DNA of 30,120 nucleotides from a virus (IMGVR_UViG_3300009703_000007:1-30120), one strand, 5' to 3'. Positions 1 through 4,667 are shown, counted from the first letter of the stretch. Translations and numbers: made by a program. Notes: generated from the letters alone by a model not told the origin.

Positions 1-212
1 ACAGTAGCAAGACGCTCCTGCCACTCTTGATGACATAGCTCCCTTCGCCAGTTCTCCTCAACACCGCCTTTAGTTATCCCCAGCAGTCCGAATGTCGCGC
101 TAAAGTGCATACCACAGAAATGGCATACTGTTCCGTACCAAGGATCCTTGTCTAAAGGCCTTACTCCGCTAGCACCACACTCACCGCACACTTGTTTAAT
201 GCTAGAGCTCAT
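1..212 (-). CDS. CxxC-CxxC paralog family member (3' end truncated by window; not in ORF track)
   Basis: Manual translation gives MSSSIKQVCGECGASG...TVCHFCGMHFSATFGLLGITKGGVEENW...; ATGA overlap with the stop of 209..478. Confidence 0.85.
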   Translation of the reverse strand, partial: MSSSIKQVCGECGASGVRPLDKDPWYGTVCHFCGMHFSATFGLLGITKGGVEENWRRELCHQEWQERLAT

Positions 213-478
213 CTGTACAAACTGTTCCTCAGCGCAGTTAGCGCCTCAGTCAGTGACGTGTAGTACCTGTGCCCATGCTTATATCTCAGCTCATCTTCCT
301 TATTGAAGTCGGAAGCTACGTCCCACACTTCACACACTCCCGTAGCACGTATCGTTAGTTGGCCGTAAGGAGAAGCGAAAATCTCGTCACAGTCAACGCA
401 ATAAGAAAAGTAGTCGTTGTCTACGCCGCGCATAACGTTGCCGCCGCAGTGCGCACATACTTGTTCAATGCTCTTCAT
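209..478 (-). CDS. CxxC-CxxC paralog family member
   Basis: IEQVCAHCGG...CVDC...PYGQLTIRATGVCEVW. Confidence 0.85.
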   Translation of the reverse strand: MKSIEQVCAHCGGNVMRGVDNDYFSYCVDCDEIFASPYGQLTIRATGVCEVWDVASDFNKEDELRYKHGHRYYTSLTEALTALRNSLYR

Positions 479-803
479 TGTCCTTCAACATTCGATACAA
501 CGCATCGCGCTTAGCGCGCAGCTCCTGTACTTTGATGTAGTCTCCTGCCCGCAACGGGCTACCACTCATTAAGCTACCTAGGTACGACCCTCTGTAGTGC
601 TCCAGTTCTTTGTAATTATTTCTACTATTCCAGCGCTCTTCAACGCCTTCCTTGGTTATCACCAGCGTGCCGTAGGTGGTGTGGTAGGCACCACAGCATT
701 GACTACAGGACGCGCCGTAGCGCTTACCCGACGTACTAAAAACTATGGCGTCACTACTACAGTAGCCGCACACCTGCTTGATCATAGTACCGAACGACTT
801 CAA
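465..803 (-). CDS. CxxC-CxxC paralog family member
   Basis: IKQVCGYCS...CSQC...TYGTLVITKEGVEERW. Confidence 0.85.
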   Translation of the reverse strand: MKSFGTMIKQVCGYCSSDAIVFSTSGKRYGASCSQCCGAYHTTYGTLVITKEGVEERWNSRNNYKELEHYRGSYLGSLMSGSPLRAGDYIKVQELRAKRDALYRMLKDNEEH

Positions 804-1117
804 TTGTCCTCGTTGAATAGGTGTTTGCGTATTTGTGGTATGTGCTCACACGCTGCGTAGTCTGTGAATAGGGCCCGCCATCCCGTTCGGCGTAGCTCGT
901 CTAGAAGAAGCTGGTTGAAGTCTAGTGTTTCTCCTGCCGGTGTACAGTCCCAACGCTCAACAACGCCTCCCTTTGCCATTTCCAAGCACCCTACGGGACG
1001 GTAGTAAACGAGGTGGCAGTTGCTGCAAACGAAAGAGCTGAGCAGTTCTTTATGACTTATCAGCTTGATCGTTCCCACCGTATTGCAGGTGCCGCATTTC
1101 TTAGGCAGTTTAGCCAC
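800..1117 (-). CDS. CxxC-CxxC paralog family member
   Basis: LPKKCGTC...CSNC...PVGCLEMAKGGVVERW. Confidence 0.85.
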   Translation of the reverse strand: MAKLPKKCGTCNTVGTIKLISHKELLSSFVCSNCHLVYYRPVGCLEMAKGGVVERWDCTPAGETLDFNQLLLDELRRTGWRALFTDYAACEHIPQIRKHLFNEDN

Positions 1118-1424
1118 GCCAGAGCTCTTTGTATTGGGTTTCTATTTTGTTAGCTGTGACCGCATACGCGTTCATAACGTTCCTTCCGTTACGGGATGCC
1201 ACAGGCCCTACGTCTTCATGGTTCTCCTCGAACCACTTCTCAGACTCCTGATACACCCAACGCTCTTCAACGCCTTCTTTGGTTATCCCTAGTGTTCCTT
1301 TGGGAGCCCAGAATGGCGCCAGACAGTCTCGACACTGCGGCACCAGGTAAGTAGGCGTGCTATGGGGTTTAGGCTTTAAACTTACACTACCCGCACAGTA
1401 GTCACATGTTTGTGTGAGTAAGAT
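1110..1424 (-). CDS. CxxC-CxxC paralog family member with no canonical in-frame start (ATC start or frameshifted)
   Basis: The frame of 1110..1343 extends upstream as ILLTQTCDYCAG...VPQCRDC...PKGTLGITKEGVEERW. There is no ATG/GTG/TTG before the first CxxC. GAGGAG lies 6 nt before ATC at 1424. Confidence 0.65.
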   Translation of the reverse strand: MLLTQTCDYCAGSVSLKPKPHSTPTYLVPQCRDCLAPFWAPKGTLGITKEGVEERWVYQESEKWFEENHEDVGPVASRNGRNVMNAYAVTANKIETQYKELWRG

Positions 1425-1725
1425 AGCCTTCTCCTCTCCACAGGAGCTTGGCCTGCTTTATTAGGTATCTTACAACGTTGCCTGTCGTTGGCGAGCTTAC
1501 GCCGGCCCTTCGTATTCCGTTAACTGCTTCGGTCCAGTCATTATTGGGCTTGTCTACCCAAACCTCACTAATACCTTGGGCGCTCCACGTCAAGTACCCT
1601 GCACGCTTCCAGAATCTGGCATCACAAGCTAGACAAAACACGACAGAAAGTTTGTTCTCAACAGCGTCTGCTATGCGGACCTGGTTAGCTGTTCCGCAGT
1701 GTTTACATACCTGAACAATCTTCAC
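1402..1725 (-). CDS. CxxC-CxxC paralog family member
   Basis: IVQVCKHCG...CLAC...RAGYLTWSAQGISEVW; AAGGAG RBS. Confidence 0.85.
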   Translation of the reverse strand: MKIVQVCKHCGTANQVRIADAVENKLSVVFCLACDARFWKRAGYLTWSAQGISEVWVDKPNNDWTEAVNGIRRAGVSSPTTGNVVRYLIKQAKLLWRGEGYLTHTNM

Positions 1726-1738
1726 AGCAGTCTCCTTG

Positions 1739-2038
1739 TTAGTTGTTTAAACGTTGCCTCACTTCCTTTTGCCTGTTGACAAGCCGATTTTCGAAGTTTT
1801 CTATACCACCAAACCTTGAAGGATGCGTAGGGTAGTTTTTGGCGTAGTAAGCATCGCTGTCTCCGCAAGCCCAACGCTCAACCATGCCGTTCTCAGTCAT
1901 TATCAAACGTCCTGCAGGTTGCCAGAACATTATGTAGCATTCAGGACAATGCATAAGGCCGAAATAAGTGGCGATGCTGCCAGGAAGTACCGGGCCCGCA
2001 CAGAACCCGCATTGTTGAGGTATAGTGGTCATCGCCAT
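1739..2038 (-). CDS. CxxC-CxxC paralog family member
   Basis: IPQQCGFC...CPEC...PAGRLIMTENGMVERW. Confidence 0.85.
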   Translation of the reverse strand: MAMTTIPQQCGFCAGPVLPGSIATYFGLMHCPECYIMFWQPAGRLIMTENGMVERWACGDSDAYYAKNYPTHPSRFGGIENFENRLVNRQKEVRQRLNN

Positions 2039-2322
2039 ACCTTTCTTTGTGCTTGGATTGCCTCAGCTATGCTCACAGCTCTTCTAGGATCCCTAGAAGG
2101 GGCTGCGTAGGTAATGGAATCCTTTACATACCACACTTCGTACACTCCATCATTACGTAGTTCCAAACGGCCTCCAGGTTGGTAATAACGTATTTTACAC
2201 GTCGTACACTCCGGAGGAGTAAGGCCAGCCTTCTGGCTGGGGTGGGGATGTTTGACACGCGACTCTACGTCAACGAAGCCTTTGCACGCGTTGCAAACCT
2301 GCTTTATGCAAATCATCGCCAC
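2029..2322 (-). CDS. CxxC-CxxC paralog family member
   Basis: IKQVCNAC...CTTC...PGGRLELRNDGVYEVW. Confidence 0.85.
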   Translation of the reverse strand: MAMICIKQVCNACKGFVDVESRVKHPHPSQKAGLTPPECTTCKIRYYQPGGRLELRNDGVYEVWYVKDSITYAAPSRDPRRAVSIAEAIQAQRKVWR

Positions 2323-2660
2323 ACCTTTGCTTGCTTTGTTGAAAGATCAGAACGCACCTTTTTACTCCGAGCGAATCTTAGCTTAGATCGGCCTGTGTTG
2401 GTATAGTGGCGAAAACTGGACACGGATCCTACCTGCTCTGCGTCGAATTTCCTGTTGGCCTTAGGACACCAATGCTCTTCCAAGCCAGCAACGCCCATGA
2501 CGAGCTTTCCTCTGTCCATCCAGAATGTGACACAGCAGTAGTTGCAGCCTAGTACGCGCCAGGCCCCGTTCTTGCCAGGCCCTGCAAGCCTGGCTGTTTT
2601 CTTTACGGCTTCTTTGCCGCATCCTCCACAGACTTGCTTGATGTTGAGCATCCGGTCCAC
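2313..2660 (-). CDS. CxxC-CxxC paralog family member
   Basis: IKQVCGGCG...CNYC...DRGKLVMGVAGLEEHW. Confidence 0.85.
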   Translation of the reverse strand: MDRMLNIKQVCGGCGKEAVKKTARLAGPGKNGAWRVLGCNYCCVTFWMDRGKLVMGVAGLEEHWCPKANRKFDAEQVGSVSSFRHYTNTGRSKLRFARSKKVRSDLSTKQAKVWR

Positions 2661-2959
2661 CTTTTGTTTTGTGCAAATGCTACGTCTTGACTTAGCTCGT
2701 TGAGATCTACGCTGTTACTCAACGTCCGTTGGTAACGTCCCAGCTGTATAACGCCTTGTTCATAGTCCCAATGCTCTTCCACGCCTCCACTTACTAGTAC
2801 CAGAAAACCAGCGCTTTGCCAGAAGAATACGTCGCAGGTCCAGCAGCACCGCTGGCCGGGCCGTATTACGTGCACAGCGGCTTTCAGCGTATCCGGAACA
2901 TCCTCGGATAAGGTAGGCTCCCCACCGCACCCTGTACAAACTTGTTTGATACCGCTCAT
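2603..2959 (-). CDS. CxxC-CxxC paralog family member
   Basis: IKQVCTGCGG...CWTC...SAGFLVLVSGGVEEHW. Confidence 0.85.
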   Translation of the reverse strand: MSGIKQVCTGCGGEPTLSEDVPDTLKAAVHVIRPGQRCCWTCDVFFWQSAGFLVLVSGGVEEHWDYEQGVIQLGRYQRTLSNSVDLNELSQDVAFAQNKRWTGCSTSSKSVEDAAKKP

Positions 2960-3243
2960 CGATACATCCCCTGCTGTAAGTTACGTAGTCTGTCTTTTAC
3001 GCTGTTTCCTACGGAACGGCCTAGTCCGTAAGATCTGTCTAACGAAACGTGGTGCGCTCCATGGTCTTCCCTGGTCCAACGCTCCTCAACGCCGTCCTGG
3101 GTTAGGCGAAGCGTCCCTGCCTTCTTGTAAATCACTGTTCCGTAGCAATGACCACACCAAAGAAAGCCTCGTTGGGGGCATATCGTGATAGGACCTCCGC
3201 ACTCAGTACATACTTGCTTAATCTTGGTGTATGTCAACGCCAT
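2956..3243 (-). CDS. CxxC-CxxC paralog family member
   Basis: IKQVCTECGG...CGHC...KAGTLRLTQDGVEERW. Confidence 0.85.
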   Translation of the reverse strand: MALTYTKIKQVCTECGGPITICPQRGFLWCGHCYGTVIYKKAGTLRLTQDGVEERWTREDHGAHHVSLDRSYGLGRSVGNSVKDRLRNLQQGMYR

Positions 3244-3632
3244 ACCTCGCCTTGGGCTTTGATTTTCCTTTGGAATATGCTTTGCTTAGCGTCGAACCAG
3301 GCCATTCTGATCGGATCACCGTGTATATCTACTTTGCGTTCTTGTCTAGCGTGCTCAGCGATTAGTTCTAGAGTTAGATCAAGCTCGTTAGGCGCAGAGA
3401 AGTGCTCTGTCAATCCGTCGGGTCCAAGCTTCAACTCCCCTACCGGCTCCTGTATTCCCTGACCGCACGTGACACATATGAGCACAGATACACAAGTGTC
3501 CTTGCAGACAACGAAACCCAGGCTCAGACTATGTCCGAACTCACAGTAGCCTGGGATTTTAAACGTCGGGTGTCGGATTCCTATATAGAGGGGCTTGGCG
3601 TGGTTTCTGCGCCTCGCCTCTTCTTTAACCAT
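3234..3632 (-). CDS. divergent CxxC paralog family member
   Basis: IPGYCEFGH...CVTC...PVGELKLGPDGLTEHF. Confidence 0.75.
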   Translation of the reverse strand: MVKEEARRRNHAKPLYIGIRHPTFKIPGYCEFGHSLSLGFVVCKDTCVSVLICVTCGQGIQEPVGELKLGPDGLTEHFSAPNELDLTLELIAEHARQERKVDIHGDPIRMAWFDAKQSIFQRKIKAQGEVWR

Positions 3633-3868
3633 TCTGCTTCCCTCTTAGCAGAGTGTATAAACAGGTCTACAAACTCGTCTCCGCTAAAGTTCGTGCCTGG
3701 ATTGCCAAAGTTCTCAACAACTCCAGTCCTGCTTAGGCTTAGTCCCTTATTTGCGTGGTAAAACTTATGGCATGTCTGACAAAAAGCTCCGTCTGGGATG
3801 TTGTCGGTCACAATTCTTGTTGCATCGTGTCCGCAGGGCAGTCGTATAGGTATAGCGTCGCCTGTCAT
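3581..3868 (-). CDS. divergent CxxC paralog family member (first gene of array)
   Basis: LPCGH...CQTC...NKGLSLSRTGVVENF; ATGA overlap with 3865..4554. Confidence 0.7.
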   Translation of the reverse strand: MTGDAIPIRLPCGHDATRIVTDNIPDGAFCQTCHKFYHANKGLSLSRTGVVENFGNPGTNFSGDEFVDLFIHSAKREAEWLKKRRGAETTPSPSI

Positions 3869-4554
3869 AGAATGGGTCGGTTCTCCCCTATGGGTTCCTT
3901 GTCCACATTCTTAGTGGTGTGCTCCATAAGCTTCGCTACGTCAATGACGTCAGAGCCCTCAGGGAGCTCGGGGAGCGCATCGTCGTGCTTGTACAGTCCG
4001 TACACGTCGTTCAACACATCCGCCGTAGTATCCAAGTCCCACCACGTAGTGATCACTGTAGACTCGTGGTCGTTCAAGTAGATAGCAGTGTAAGGAATGG
4101 TGGACCCTGCCTCCTCCATAGTACGAAGGTAGGCAACGAGGCTCTTGTTGATCAGGACTATCCCTGCTGTGCGTGTGCGTATCTTGGCGAAGGGCTCAAC
4201 ACCCGGCAGCAGCGGTTTGTTGGAAGTAGAGTCGTAGCTGAACGCTGGAACAGGGTTTGGAGGGGCCCATCGCTGAGACGGAGAAGGGTGCCAGGGTATG
4301 GGTGTAGGGTTTACGTGCATGGTCTTGACTCCGGTGTTTAATATATCCTGGTAAACTCCATTCCCGGTAGTAGTGACGGTGCGCGTGTAGGCTTTGCTCA
4401 GTGTATTCTTGATATCGTCTATAGACTTGTTGAGGCTGTCCAAGCGGGCTTGGCTGTTGTCGTTGTCGTACATGGGTTTTGATCTTCCTGATAAAGTTTT
4501 GGGTGTAGCCCTACTCCAACTGTCGTACATTTCGGGCAACGCTGATCTAGCCAT
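3865..4554 (-). CDS. hypothetical protein
   Basis: 229 aa ORF, GAGG RBS, coupled to the array. Confidence 0.75.
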   Translation of the reverse strand: MARSALPEMYDSWSRATPKTLSGRSKPMYDNDNSQARLDSLNKSIDDIKNTLSKAYTRTVTTTGNGVYQDILNTGVKTMHVNPTPIPWHPSPSQRWAPPNPVPAFSYDSTSNKPLLPGVEPFAKIRTRTAGIVLINKSLVAYLRTMEEAGSTIPYTAIYLNDHESTVITTWWDLDTTADVLNDVYGLYKHDDALPELPEGSDVIDVAKLMEHTTKNVDKEPIGENRPIL

Positions 4555-4570
4555 AGTGTAGTTTTCCTCA

Positions 4571-4620
4571 AGCTAAAAGAGAGGAGAAAAGAGGGCGTCG
4601 TTGCTCCAACTTTTCTCCTC
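4571..4620 (-). terminator. hairpin + TTTTAG element
   Basis: Stem GAGGAGAAAAG / CTTTTCTCCTC followed by TCTTTTAGC on the minus strand. Confidence 0.65.
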
Positions 4621-4653
4621 CACCTTTCTTCAGGTGCTGAACCCTGATATTAG

Positions 4654-4667
4654 CAAGGACTTATACC
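4654..4667 (-). promoter_or_regulatory. GGTATAAG-N5-G promoter motif
   Basis: GGTATAAG TCCTT G. Confidence 0.7.

Follow-up and report, generated by a model that had tools for sequence, protein, structure and literature searches.

Thirteen diverged zinc-ribbon genes in tandem in a large uncultured phage

At one end of the stretch of phage DNA analyzed here (IMGVR_UViG_3300009703_000007:1-30120; 30,120 nucleotides, hereafter the window), 13 consecutive open reading frames (ORFs) run head to tail on the minus strand between positions 3 and 3868, all of them members of one family. Paralog families as large as 13 are rare in phages, which raises the question of what these proteins are, how long they have been kept, and what a phage would use so many of them for. 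The genome that carries the array is a circular assembly of 177,247 bp from an uncultured phage, present in samples ERZ27251152/SRR6056609 and JGI 3300011013. The array is the sole paralog family in these 177 kb and makes up ~2% of the genome.

Extent of the array

A first reading, made from the sequence alone, had described 13 minus-strand paralogs with a shared motif. Both the coordinates and the family relationship were borne out, as each copy was recovered by a profile of the other twelve (Table 1). The same reading had put the number at 13 or more, with the array running off the left edge of the window. Copy 1 does run past the window by 25 codons, as seen in the circular assembly and in an independent contig. 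Beyond these codons, however, L002 shows a strong hairpin, a GGTATAAG phage promoter box, and then an unrelated gene, so the array consists of exactly 13 copies and no further array follows.

Table 1. The paralogs and the leading part of their transcription unit, with positions in the window.
Feature	Position	Strand	Description
Copy 1, last array gene	3..212	-	residues 1-70 in window; full protein 95 aa (P0006)
Copy 2	209..478	-	89 aa
Copy 3	465..803	-	112 aa from TTG or 106 aa from ATG
Copy 4	800..1117	-	105 aa, GTG start
Copy 5	1110..1427	-	full motif in open frame
Copy 6	1402..1725	-	107 aa; tail extends beyond ancestral ...LWRG end
Copy 7	1739..2038	-	99 aa
Copy 8	2029..2322	-	97 aa
Copy 9	2313..2660	-	112-115 aa, very basic tail
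Copy 10	2603..2959	-	118 aa; tail extended because the ancestral stop is lost
Copy 11	2956..3243	-	95 aa
Copy 12	3234..3632	-	132 aa; first knuckle degenerate (C-x3-H)
Copy 13, first array gene	3581..3868	-	95 aa; first knuckle C-x-H
229-aa orphan gene	3865..4554	-	first gene of unit; stop overlaps copy 13 start
Leader hairpin	4573..4624	-	12-bp GGAGGAGAAAAG stem, ends TTTTAG; between promoter box and 229-aa gene
GGTATAAG phage promoter box	4660..4667	-	nearest upstream box

A conserved core with diversified loops and tails

All 13 copies have a CxxC-loop-CxxC core with a G-x-L...G-V-x-E-x-W hairpin after it. Eleven of them match the strict motif C-x2-C-x(11-27)-C-x2-C...aromatic...G-x-L...G-[VLIM]-x-E-x-W, and 11 also carry, as C-x2-C-x(14-27)-C-x2-C, the two CxxC knuckles with a beta-hairpin-forming spacer that define a C4 zinc ribbon; copy 12 fits a relaxed form of the motif and copy 13 a degenerate one. 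Leave-one-out profiles, each built from the other twelve copies and run against the six-frame genome, gave E values of 6e-12 to 4e-16 for copies 1-11, 2.4e-5 for copy 12, and 1.3e-6 for copy 13, against ~0.2 for the best unrelated ORF, so the similarity extends well beyond the cysteines. Eight positions of the core vary little or not at all.

The two most upstream copies had been noted to lack part of the first CxxC, and this is indeed the case: in copies 12 and 13, the first knuckle has a His in place of its second Cys. The equivalent copies in a distant relative (described below) retain this Cys. Both copies also have F instead of the conserved W. Copy 12 contains an additional CxxxC, and copy 13 shows a 1-residue deletion ahead of G-x-L, which is common to copies R_a and R_b of the relative.

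The inter-knuckle loop (11-27 residues) and the tail are both diversified, in agreement with the earlier picture of a fixed zinc scaffold with variable loop and tail in an old expansion. Divergence has reached saturation in the loop, the linker, and the charge of the proteins. The tails had been called unrelated, which holds for most of their length, as their mean identity is only 15%, but not for their ends. Nine of the 13 window copies end in a common ...[VLM]-[WY]-R, which overlaps the ribosome-binding site and start of the next gene; copy 10 has W-T, and copies 4, 7, and 13 are without this ending.

A previously undescribed family with a predicted zinc-ribbon fold

Scans of every member against Pfam, PHROGs, NCBIfam, and PADLOC yielded nothing significant, and a PDB sequence profile search returned cysteine-driven noise only. 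Structure modeling, for which copy 3 was the target, gave an all-beta core of six strands (AF2; pLDDT 90.6, pTM 0.73) and a full-length model with a helical tail (pLDDT 82). The fold is confidently predicted to be an all-beta zinc ribbon with an extra hairpin, followed by a variable helical tail. When full-length and core-only models were compared to known structures, Foldseek found nothing at E <= 1e-3 in the PDB or BFVD, and VIA-align nothing above Z 3.3; the ESM Atlas held no informative cluster. The best weak fold neighbors were the ribbons of TFIIB, Elf1/ELOF1, NrdR, MqsA, and primase (Z 2.1-3.1). The sequence-only reading had likewise failed to recognize the family, and we conclude that these small zinc-ribbon proteins form a previously undescribed family.

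The copies could be distant relatives of Lar/RalR (PF14354, TIGR03655); they would then be restriction alleviation proteins or small endonuclease toxins, with many copies matching many restriction systems. Lar/RalR proteins are also small phage or prophage C4 zinc-ribbon proteins in which a Trp downstream of the second knuckle is conserved. PF14354 was matched by 2 of the 13 copies at E 0.004 (the only two at E <= 1), the best being copy 3, which aligns to positions 5-58 of 58 at 16.5 bits; TIGR03655 was matched by one copy (E 0.037), and Lar-family models appeared, non-significantly, in the BFVD lists. The curated gathering cutoff of PF14354 is 28.6 bits, however, and hhalign of the A2 profile against the RalR alignment gave 46% probability for a match limited to 30 columns in the knuckles, with a RalR alignment so narrow (62-89% identity to the first sequence) that a profile of more diverse Lar proteins might extend the match. 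In the model, a beta-hairpin forms where the sequence aligns to the C-terminal W-N region of Lar, and the array proteins exceed Lar in length by 30-70 residues. Unlike Lar/RalR, the array family has a different predicted secondary structure after the second knuckle, long variable tails, and a multi-copy arrangement. We therefore consider it very unlikely that the copies are distant members of this family. Lar_restr_allev membership was rejected, as the score was sub-threshold and the C-terminal ...A-L-x-R-W-N-K-R helix region was not covered by the similarity.

The array is ancient and lineage-specific

Core identity among the copies is 28%, and the fraction of identical codons at shared residues (0.395, versus 0.375 expected) shows that synonymous sites are saturated. 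In a tree built to assign orthologs between the 13-copy array and the 5-copy array of the relative, branch lengths were mostly 1-8 substitutions per site; the tree gave long-branch warnings and did not resolve. DNA-level repeats among the copies were absent except for a 47-nt patch over conserved hairpin codons. Gene accordions consist of recent, near-identical copies, and the earlier suggestion of an accordion, a term that implies recent, dynamic amplification, is not supported by these numbers: the copies are not near-identical, and their codon identity is at the level of chance.

The distant relative (L003; samples JGI 3300010151 and ERZ27249009) carries five copies, R_a to R_e, between the same flanking genes, directly preceded by an ortholog of the 229-aa gene. 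Copy number at this syntenic site is thus 13 in one phage and 5 in the other. Orthologs in the relative are only ~41% identical; copy 9 is nearest to R_c and R_d, with 46% and 39% core identity, respectively. The family is absent from Salmonella phage Arash and Vibrio phage D181, and is carried by only two phage types among ~15 billion public proteins, under a 35-bit score floor that may hide more distant arrays. When 1.84 billion representative proteins were searched exhaustively with a profile, the only members to come up were this phage's own proteins and two from the relative, the remaining matches being long Cys-rich repeat proteins. No new member came from a word-indexed protein search with a 17-sequence profile, and all 19 matches to an IKQVCxxCG DNA pattern in IMG/VR were chance. 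Using the 229-aa flanking gene as bait in viral and metagenome contigs returned only an already known 3.5-kb contig, and a word-indexed search with its protein found nothing but a shortened form of the query. With at least three adjacent related paralogs that are fewer or absent in relatives, the array is an ancient lineage-specific tandem expansion.

Despite their age, the copies have been maintained. A decaying relic, made of leftover duplicates without present function, would fit a few features: the zinc ligand lost in copies 12 and 13, ancestral stops that are read through in copies 6 and 10, and a missing canonical start in copy 5. Ahead of its first knuckle, copy 5 has no ATG, GTG, or TTG in its open frame, and it was skipped by the ENA gene caller; a strong GGAGAGGAG Shine-Dalgarno sequence lies 6 nt before an in-frame ATC. 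It is highly improbable that the array as a whole is such a relic, however. All 13 frames are open despite synonymous saturation (12 of them with a canonical start), the conserved core positions have been held, the start/stop coupling has been preserved, as have the Shine-Dalgarno sites, and the array is retained in a relative as diverged as the one described above. Between two near-identical relatives, all four differences fall within codons 5-21 of one copy, and two of these are amino acid changes in the loop. A DGR-like mechanism was considered, but no adenine bias was seen among these changes, which comprise only 4 sites.

Thirteen copies chained in one unit

The paralogs are part of one 14-gene unit, consisting of a phage promoter box, a leader hairpin, the 229-aa orphan gene, the 13 paralogs, and a closing hairpin. 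The stop and start regions of neighboring genes overlap and chain the unit together: in the overlapping junctions (...VWR*/GTGGCGATTAAA), the stop of one gene falls within the Ile-Lys codons at the conserved N-terminus of the gene that follows. Such strict overlap makes this a clean example of a tandem array that keeps translational coupling. The GGTATAAG box occurs 14 times in the window, always on the minus strand (0.56 expected), but not within positions 1-4659. From this arrangement we infer that the 13 copies share a transcript and are all translated from it together. The leader hairpin is terminator-like and lies between the genes and the only promoter box of the unit, the expression of which may depend on read-through.

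Coupling of this kind implies roughly equimolar synthesis, as would suit a hetero-oligomeric assembly built from 13 related subunits at a fixed ratio, partnered by the 229-aa protein, or a set of virion or internal proteins. The conserved core and conserved C-terminal helix end could serve as shared interfaces, and both phages have retained the 229-aa gene along with the array. Yet a fixed assembly fits poorly with 5 copies in one phage and 13 in the other, no homology to structural proteins was found, and the unit sits among small accessory cassettes driven by the box found ahead of non-structural genes. We regard an assembly or virion role as improbable.

Possible functions of the paralogs

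Instead, we tentatively favor the possibility that the paralogs form a co-expressed repertoire of small binding modules, perhaps directed against host proteins in take-over or counter-defense. The conserved core would supply the fold, while the variable loop and tail would give each copy its own target. These targets would most likely be host proteins, as the array lies in a non-structural, accessory region of a large lytic phage's genome. A host-interacting or anti-defense role is suggested by the accessory region of small genes, the orphan status of the family, and the diversified repertoire. The isoelectric points of the copies range from 5.2 to 10.2, which argues against one common nucleic-acid ligand. 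The differences between the two near-identical relatives, clustered in one copy and including two amino acid changes in its loop, also speak for a repertoire, albeit through only 4 sites. To our knowledge, however, known anti-defense genes are rarely found as 13 co-transcribed paralogs, and nucleic acids or RNA polymerase are very common ligands of zinc ribbons; both points count against a repertoire aimed at host proteins.

Among the residues shared by the copies are polar ones, the K/Q of IKQVC and an invariant E. Rather than a core that is purely structural, these could mark a common ligand, which would speak against a repertoire.

A more specific version of the repertoire, which we think rather unlikely, is a new class of phage library for counter-defense or take-over, with 13 loops and tails on one zinc-ribbon scaffold, in which each copy neutralizes a different host protein or defense variant, and which grows or shrinks (13 versus 5 copies) with the repertoire of the host.

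About as doubtful is the possibility that the copies work with a multisubunit RNA polymerase of the phage, whether as specific transcription factors or as structural proteins that bind DNA or RNA. The phage does encode RNA polymerase beta-like subunits and uses its own promoter word, zinc ribbons are typical binders of nucleic acids and RNA polymerase (the weak fold neighbors are the ribbons listed above), and several tails are strongly basic (+11 in copy 9, +13 in R_a of the relative). The zinc-ribbon expansion of Bacillus phage G provides a precedent (PMC7824862). Against regulators, half of the copies have a neutral or acidic pI (5.2-6.9), 13 of them in fixed proportion from one operon would be unusual, all fold matches remained below Z 3.3, and the phage G ribbons were matched only in the knuckles, at 12-16 bits. 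Should the copies nevertheless be regulators, they would bear on how transcription is programmed in phages with their own RNA polymerase, and on the unexplained phage G expansion.

If, on the other hand, the copies are target-specific binders, as in the repertoire we favor, nature would here have built a compact library, in which a single small scaffold with a confidently predicted fold presents 13 diversified surfaces. Such a library would help in the search for new host targets or defense systems and could serve as a minimal binder scaffold.

Comparison with known systems

Generic zinc ribbons, such as the N-termini of TFIIB, NrdR, and MqsA, Elf1/ELOF1, and the primase ribbon, resemble the array proteins in having two CxxC knuckles on beta-hairpins. 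None rises above background, however, none covers the extra G-x-L...G-V-x-E-x-W hairpin, and none shows significant sequence similarity.

The closest precedent is Bacillus phage G, in which a lineage-specific expansion of ~35 zinc ribbons has been described (Iyer et al. 2021, PMC7824862), and for which a role as specific transcription factors or structural DNA-binding proteins was suggested (PMC7824862). In both cases, a small zinc-ribbon protein is represented by many diverged paralogs within a large phage genome. Searching the whole phage G genome with the A2 profile gave 4 matches of 12-16 bits (E 0.005-0.07), confined to profile positions 2-43. These four best matches are scattered over the 497-kb genome, whereas the 13 array copies lie in one strictly tandem, overlapping operon and carry the extra conserved beta-hairpin.

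The array differs from the gene accordions and multigene families of large eukaryotic DNA viruses in host domain and in the divergence of its copies (~28% identical, saturated), and has no known homology to them. In poxvirus K3L amplification and in ASFV MGF110, tandem paralog arrays of varying copy number occupy accessory regions and are linked to interaction with the host. If the 13 paralogs did act as a library against host proteins, they would be a phage analog of the multigene families by which large eukaryotic viruses evade immunity.

A closed array of 13 paralogous genes

Thirteen consecutive minus-strand ORFs, encoding proteins of 89 to 132 aa, fill positions 3-3868. The sequence-only reading had described them as tandem genes sharing a motif, in which two CxxC knuckles flank a loop and are followed by G-x-L...G-V-x-E-x-W, and profile searches confirmed this: with a 61-position core profile, the 13 copies scored 52-79 bits, versus 8 bits for the next ORF. 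A strict pattern of the motif matched 11 of the 13 copies and had no other match in the genome; copy 12 came in with a relaxed pattern, and copy 13, the first gene of the array, carries a degenerate form. The alignment shows the second CxxC unchanged in every copy, along with both G and L of G-x-L and both G and E of G-V-x-E-x-W; the first CxxC is almost invariant. Leave-one-out profiles recovered every copy, with copies 1-11 at E 6e-12 to 4e-16 and the weakest, copies 12 and 13, at E 2.4e-5 and 1.3e-6 (noise at E ~0.2). An all-against-all BLASTP of the genome's ORFs returned the array as the sole paralog family.

The window is the opening 30,120 bases of a 158,120-base IMG/VR record rated 89% complete. 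A 177,388-base ENA contig (ERZ27251152 k141_890409) matches the window at 99.99% identity, and its two ends repeat each other over exactly 141 bases, which is the k-mer length of the assembler; it is therefore a circular assembly, with a complete genome of 177,247 bp, of which ~19 kb are missing from the IMG/VR record. Full-length copy 1 (95 aa), found by protein search, is encoded on this contig, and a contig of another JGI sample is 100% identical from copy 2 through copy 1 and onward past the array. Beyond the stop codon of copy 1, the last gene, lies a strong hairpin, within a 95-nt stretch whose folding energy is -32 kcal/mol (z -3.4). Next in line are a GGTATAAG box, then a Shine-Dalgarno site and a gene for a 57-aa membrane-like protein (L033:145-318 on the ENA contig) unrelated to the zinc-ribbon family. 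As these elements end the array and the missing ~19 kb contains no further copies, the array has exactly 13 members. The earlier count of at least 13 thus stands at its minimum, and the circular assembly and the second contig show that only the last 25 codons of copy 1 lie beyond the left edge.

Genes for a metallophosphatase, an RNA ligase-like protein, endonuclease VII, and DHFR are found in the missing segment; genes further along the same locus, among them those for a Band_7 protein, a LigD-type DNA ligase, and an HNH endonuclease, are within the part present in IMG/VR. No nucleotide-level relative of the phage was found among 50,697 phage records. The phage's RNA polymerase beta-like subunit is closest, among cultured phages, to those of Salmonella phage Arash and of the Vibrio phages D181, D148, and D69 (~34% identity). 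No members of the array family were detected in Arash or D181.

Organization of the unit

The window contains 14 GGTATAAG boxes, every one on the minus strand, versus 0.56 expected. The array unit belongs to a long run of small-gene cassettes, putatively driven by this box, which goes on past the array in the circular genome. Within positions 1-4659, no exact box was present. Because a strong hairpin separates the sole upstream box from the 14-gene unit of the 229-aa gene and 13 copies, expression of this unit may depend on read-through or antitermination; alternatively, the hairpin may be an RNA-stability element. None of the tested neighbor genes of the array belonged to a known family.

Features of the array unit
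Feature	Position	Strand	Remarks
GGTATAAG candidate promoter box	4660-4667	minus	nearest box upstream of unit
Leader hairpin	within 4573-4667	minus	12-bp stem, ending TTTTAG; between box and 229-aa gene
229-aa orphan gene	3865-4554	minus	first of unit; stop overlaps copy 13 start
Patch in copy 3	630-676		47 nt, hairpin-coding
Patch in copy 5	1257-1303		47 nt, hairpin-coding
Copy 6 extended tail and copy 5 frame	1343-1457	minus	copy 5 frame offset by +1 from copy 6 tail

The 229-aa protein, which leads the array operon both here and in a second phage type (see below), has a Pro-rich N-terminal half and a conserved C-terminal domain at about residues 120-185, including IRTRTAGIV and ESTVITTWWD. 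This domain resembles small viral proteins and LytTR-/FlbD-like beta domains in a low-confidence ESM Atlas model only.

At 10 of the 12 array junctions, genes overlap or abut. Gaps occur only at the other two: ~14 nt separate copy 7 from copy 6, and ~25 nt lie between the copy 6 stop and the ATC proposed to start copy 5. Where junctions are best preserved, the stop of the upstream ...V-W-R(-G-D) lies within the downstream GTG-GCG-ATT-AAA, so that the stop codon falls in the Ile-Lys codons of the next copy's N-terminal IKQVC, and the (K/E/R)-V codons provide the Shine-Dalgarno site. The conserved C-terminal W-R thus partly reflects a DNA-level constraint. Copy 5 has an open frame through both knuckles without ATG, GTG, or TTG; a strong Shine-Dalgarno sequence, GGAGAGGAG, lies 6 nt upstream of an in-frame ATC. 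Copy 5 may have a non-canonical start at this ATC, or may be truncated or dead.

Age and selection

Mean identity among the copies is 28% in the core and 15% in the tail that follows it, and adjacent copies are no closer than distant ones (30% versus 28% core identity). At columns with a shared residue, the same codon is used in 39.5% of cases, versus 37.5% expected from codon usage. The maximum-likelihood tree did not resolve, with branches mostly of 1-8 substitutions per site, and repetition at the DNA level is confined to a 47-nt patch that covers the conserved G-x-L...G-V-x-E-x-W hairpin. These low identities, near-random codon sharing, long branches, and lack of a wider repeat indicate old duplications and no recent homogenization; the array is borne out as an old tandem expansion of diverged paralogs, and the term "accordion" is not. 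The patches in copies 3 and 5 share 83% identity, far more than the array average, and could reflect a small gene conversion or strong constraint on TL(V/G)ITKEGVEERW.

All 13 frames are open, and scaffold residues and coupling signals have been retained despite this age, from which we infer purifying selection on each copy. That the array is a decaying relic is less likely.

A smaller array in a related phage

Among 1.84 billion representative proteins, just two of the small proteins matched come from outside this phage. Both belong to a second phage type, represented by a 3.5-kb JGI contig (L003) and a 1-kb ENA contig (L004). On the larger contig are five copies, of which one is weak, directly after a gene orthologous to that of the 229-aa protein (41% identity, E 2e-29). 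Downstream are an extra 101-aa gene and an ortholog of the post-array small membrane protein (L003:2197-2331), which has a ...RWL(L/V)RG... stretch in common with its counterpart. With the same flanking genes, the site is syntenic in both phages, with 13 versus 5 copies. In each array, the two leading copies carry F or Y where the others have the conserved W, and a one-residue deletion is common to copy 13 and the relative's R_a and R_b. With no backing from the tree, these features suggest positional orthology of the 5' copies and an origin of the copy-number difference among W-type copies.

Four of 1,027 bases distinguish the relative's two contigs (99.6% identical), and all four fall in a 47-nt stretch (L003:1513-1559) in codons 5-21 of one copy. 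They include one synonymous change, and A18G and V21M alter the inter-knuckle loop; this clustering is suggestive, with four sites being far too few for evidence. ARAGORN found no tRNA in L003. An 82-nt stretch in the AT-rich region downstream of the relative's array (L003:2428-2841) is 83% identical to a distant position in our phage's genome (79,760-79,874), matching partly in both orientations.

Predicted fold

AlphaFold2, run with the family alignment, gave a confident model that supported the proposed zinc-ribbon-like scaffold. The core-only model has six strands (pLDDT 90.6, pTM 0.73), with G-x-L...G-V-x-E-x-W forming an extra beta-hairpin following the ribbon. In the full-length model of copy 3 (mean pLDDT 82), the beta core is followed by a helix (54-68), a disordered stretch (71-78), and a second helix (80-104). 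Foldseek returned no match at E <= 1e-3 against PDB and BFVD, and VIA-align against 48,161 chains gave best Z-scores of 3.3 (full model) and 3.1 (core). Ribbon-like neighbors were generic: MqsA, TFIIB, Elf1/ELOF1, NrdR, and the T4 primase ribbon. For such a small predicted domain, these weak matches single out no specific relative and do not imply a new fold.

Possible functions and comparison with known systems

The copies span pI 5.2 to 10.2, and the net charge of their tails spans -4 to +11, with the relative's R_a at pI 10.3 and +13; this variation argues against one shared nucleic-acid ligand for all copies. Our tentatively preferred reading is that the array is a repertoire of binders for different targets, probably host ones: a fixed scaffold would carry diversified loops and tails, and the copies would be co-expressed. 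The orphan distribution and variable copy number also led us to prefer this reading, and we hypothesize an effector role. A hetero-oligomeric or virion role for the copies is less likely.

The main alternative is that the copies are specific regulators or DNA-binding proteins, as Iyer et al. proposed for the ~35-copy zinc-ribbon expansion in Bacillus phage G (PMC7824862). We consider it less probable here than the binder reading. The array profile matches the phage G ribbons in the knuckles only.

Two copies matched the Pfam restriction-alleviation family Lar_restr_allev at E 0.004, and copy 3 aligned with nearly the whole model. Its score, however, was 16.5 bits versus a cut-off of 28.6, a profile-profile comparison with the RalR alignment (46% probability) covered only 30 knuckle columns, and strands are predicted where the C-terminal W-N region of Lar would align. 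Membership of Lar was therefore rejected, and a Lar-like role is less likely. Large expansion of a zinc ribbon is already recorded for a big phage; what is new here is the family, and an expansion that is strictly tandem and translationally chained.
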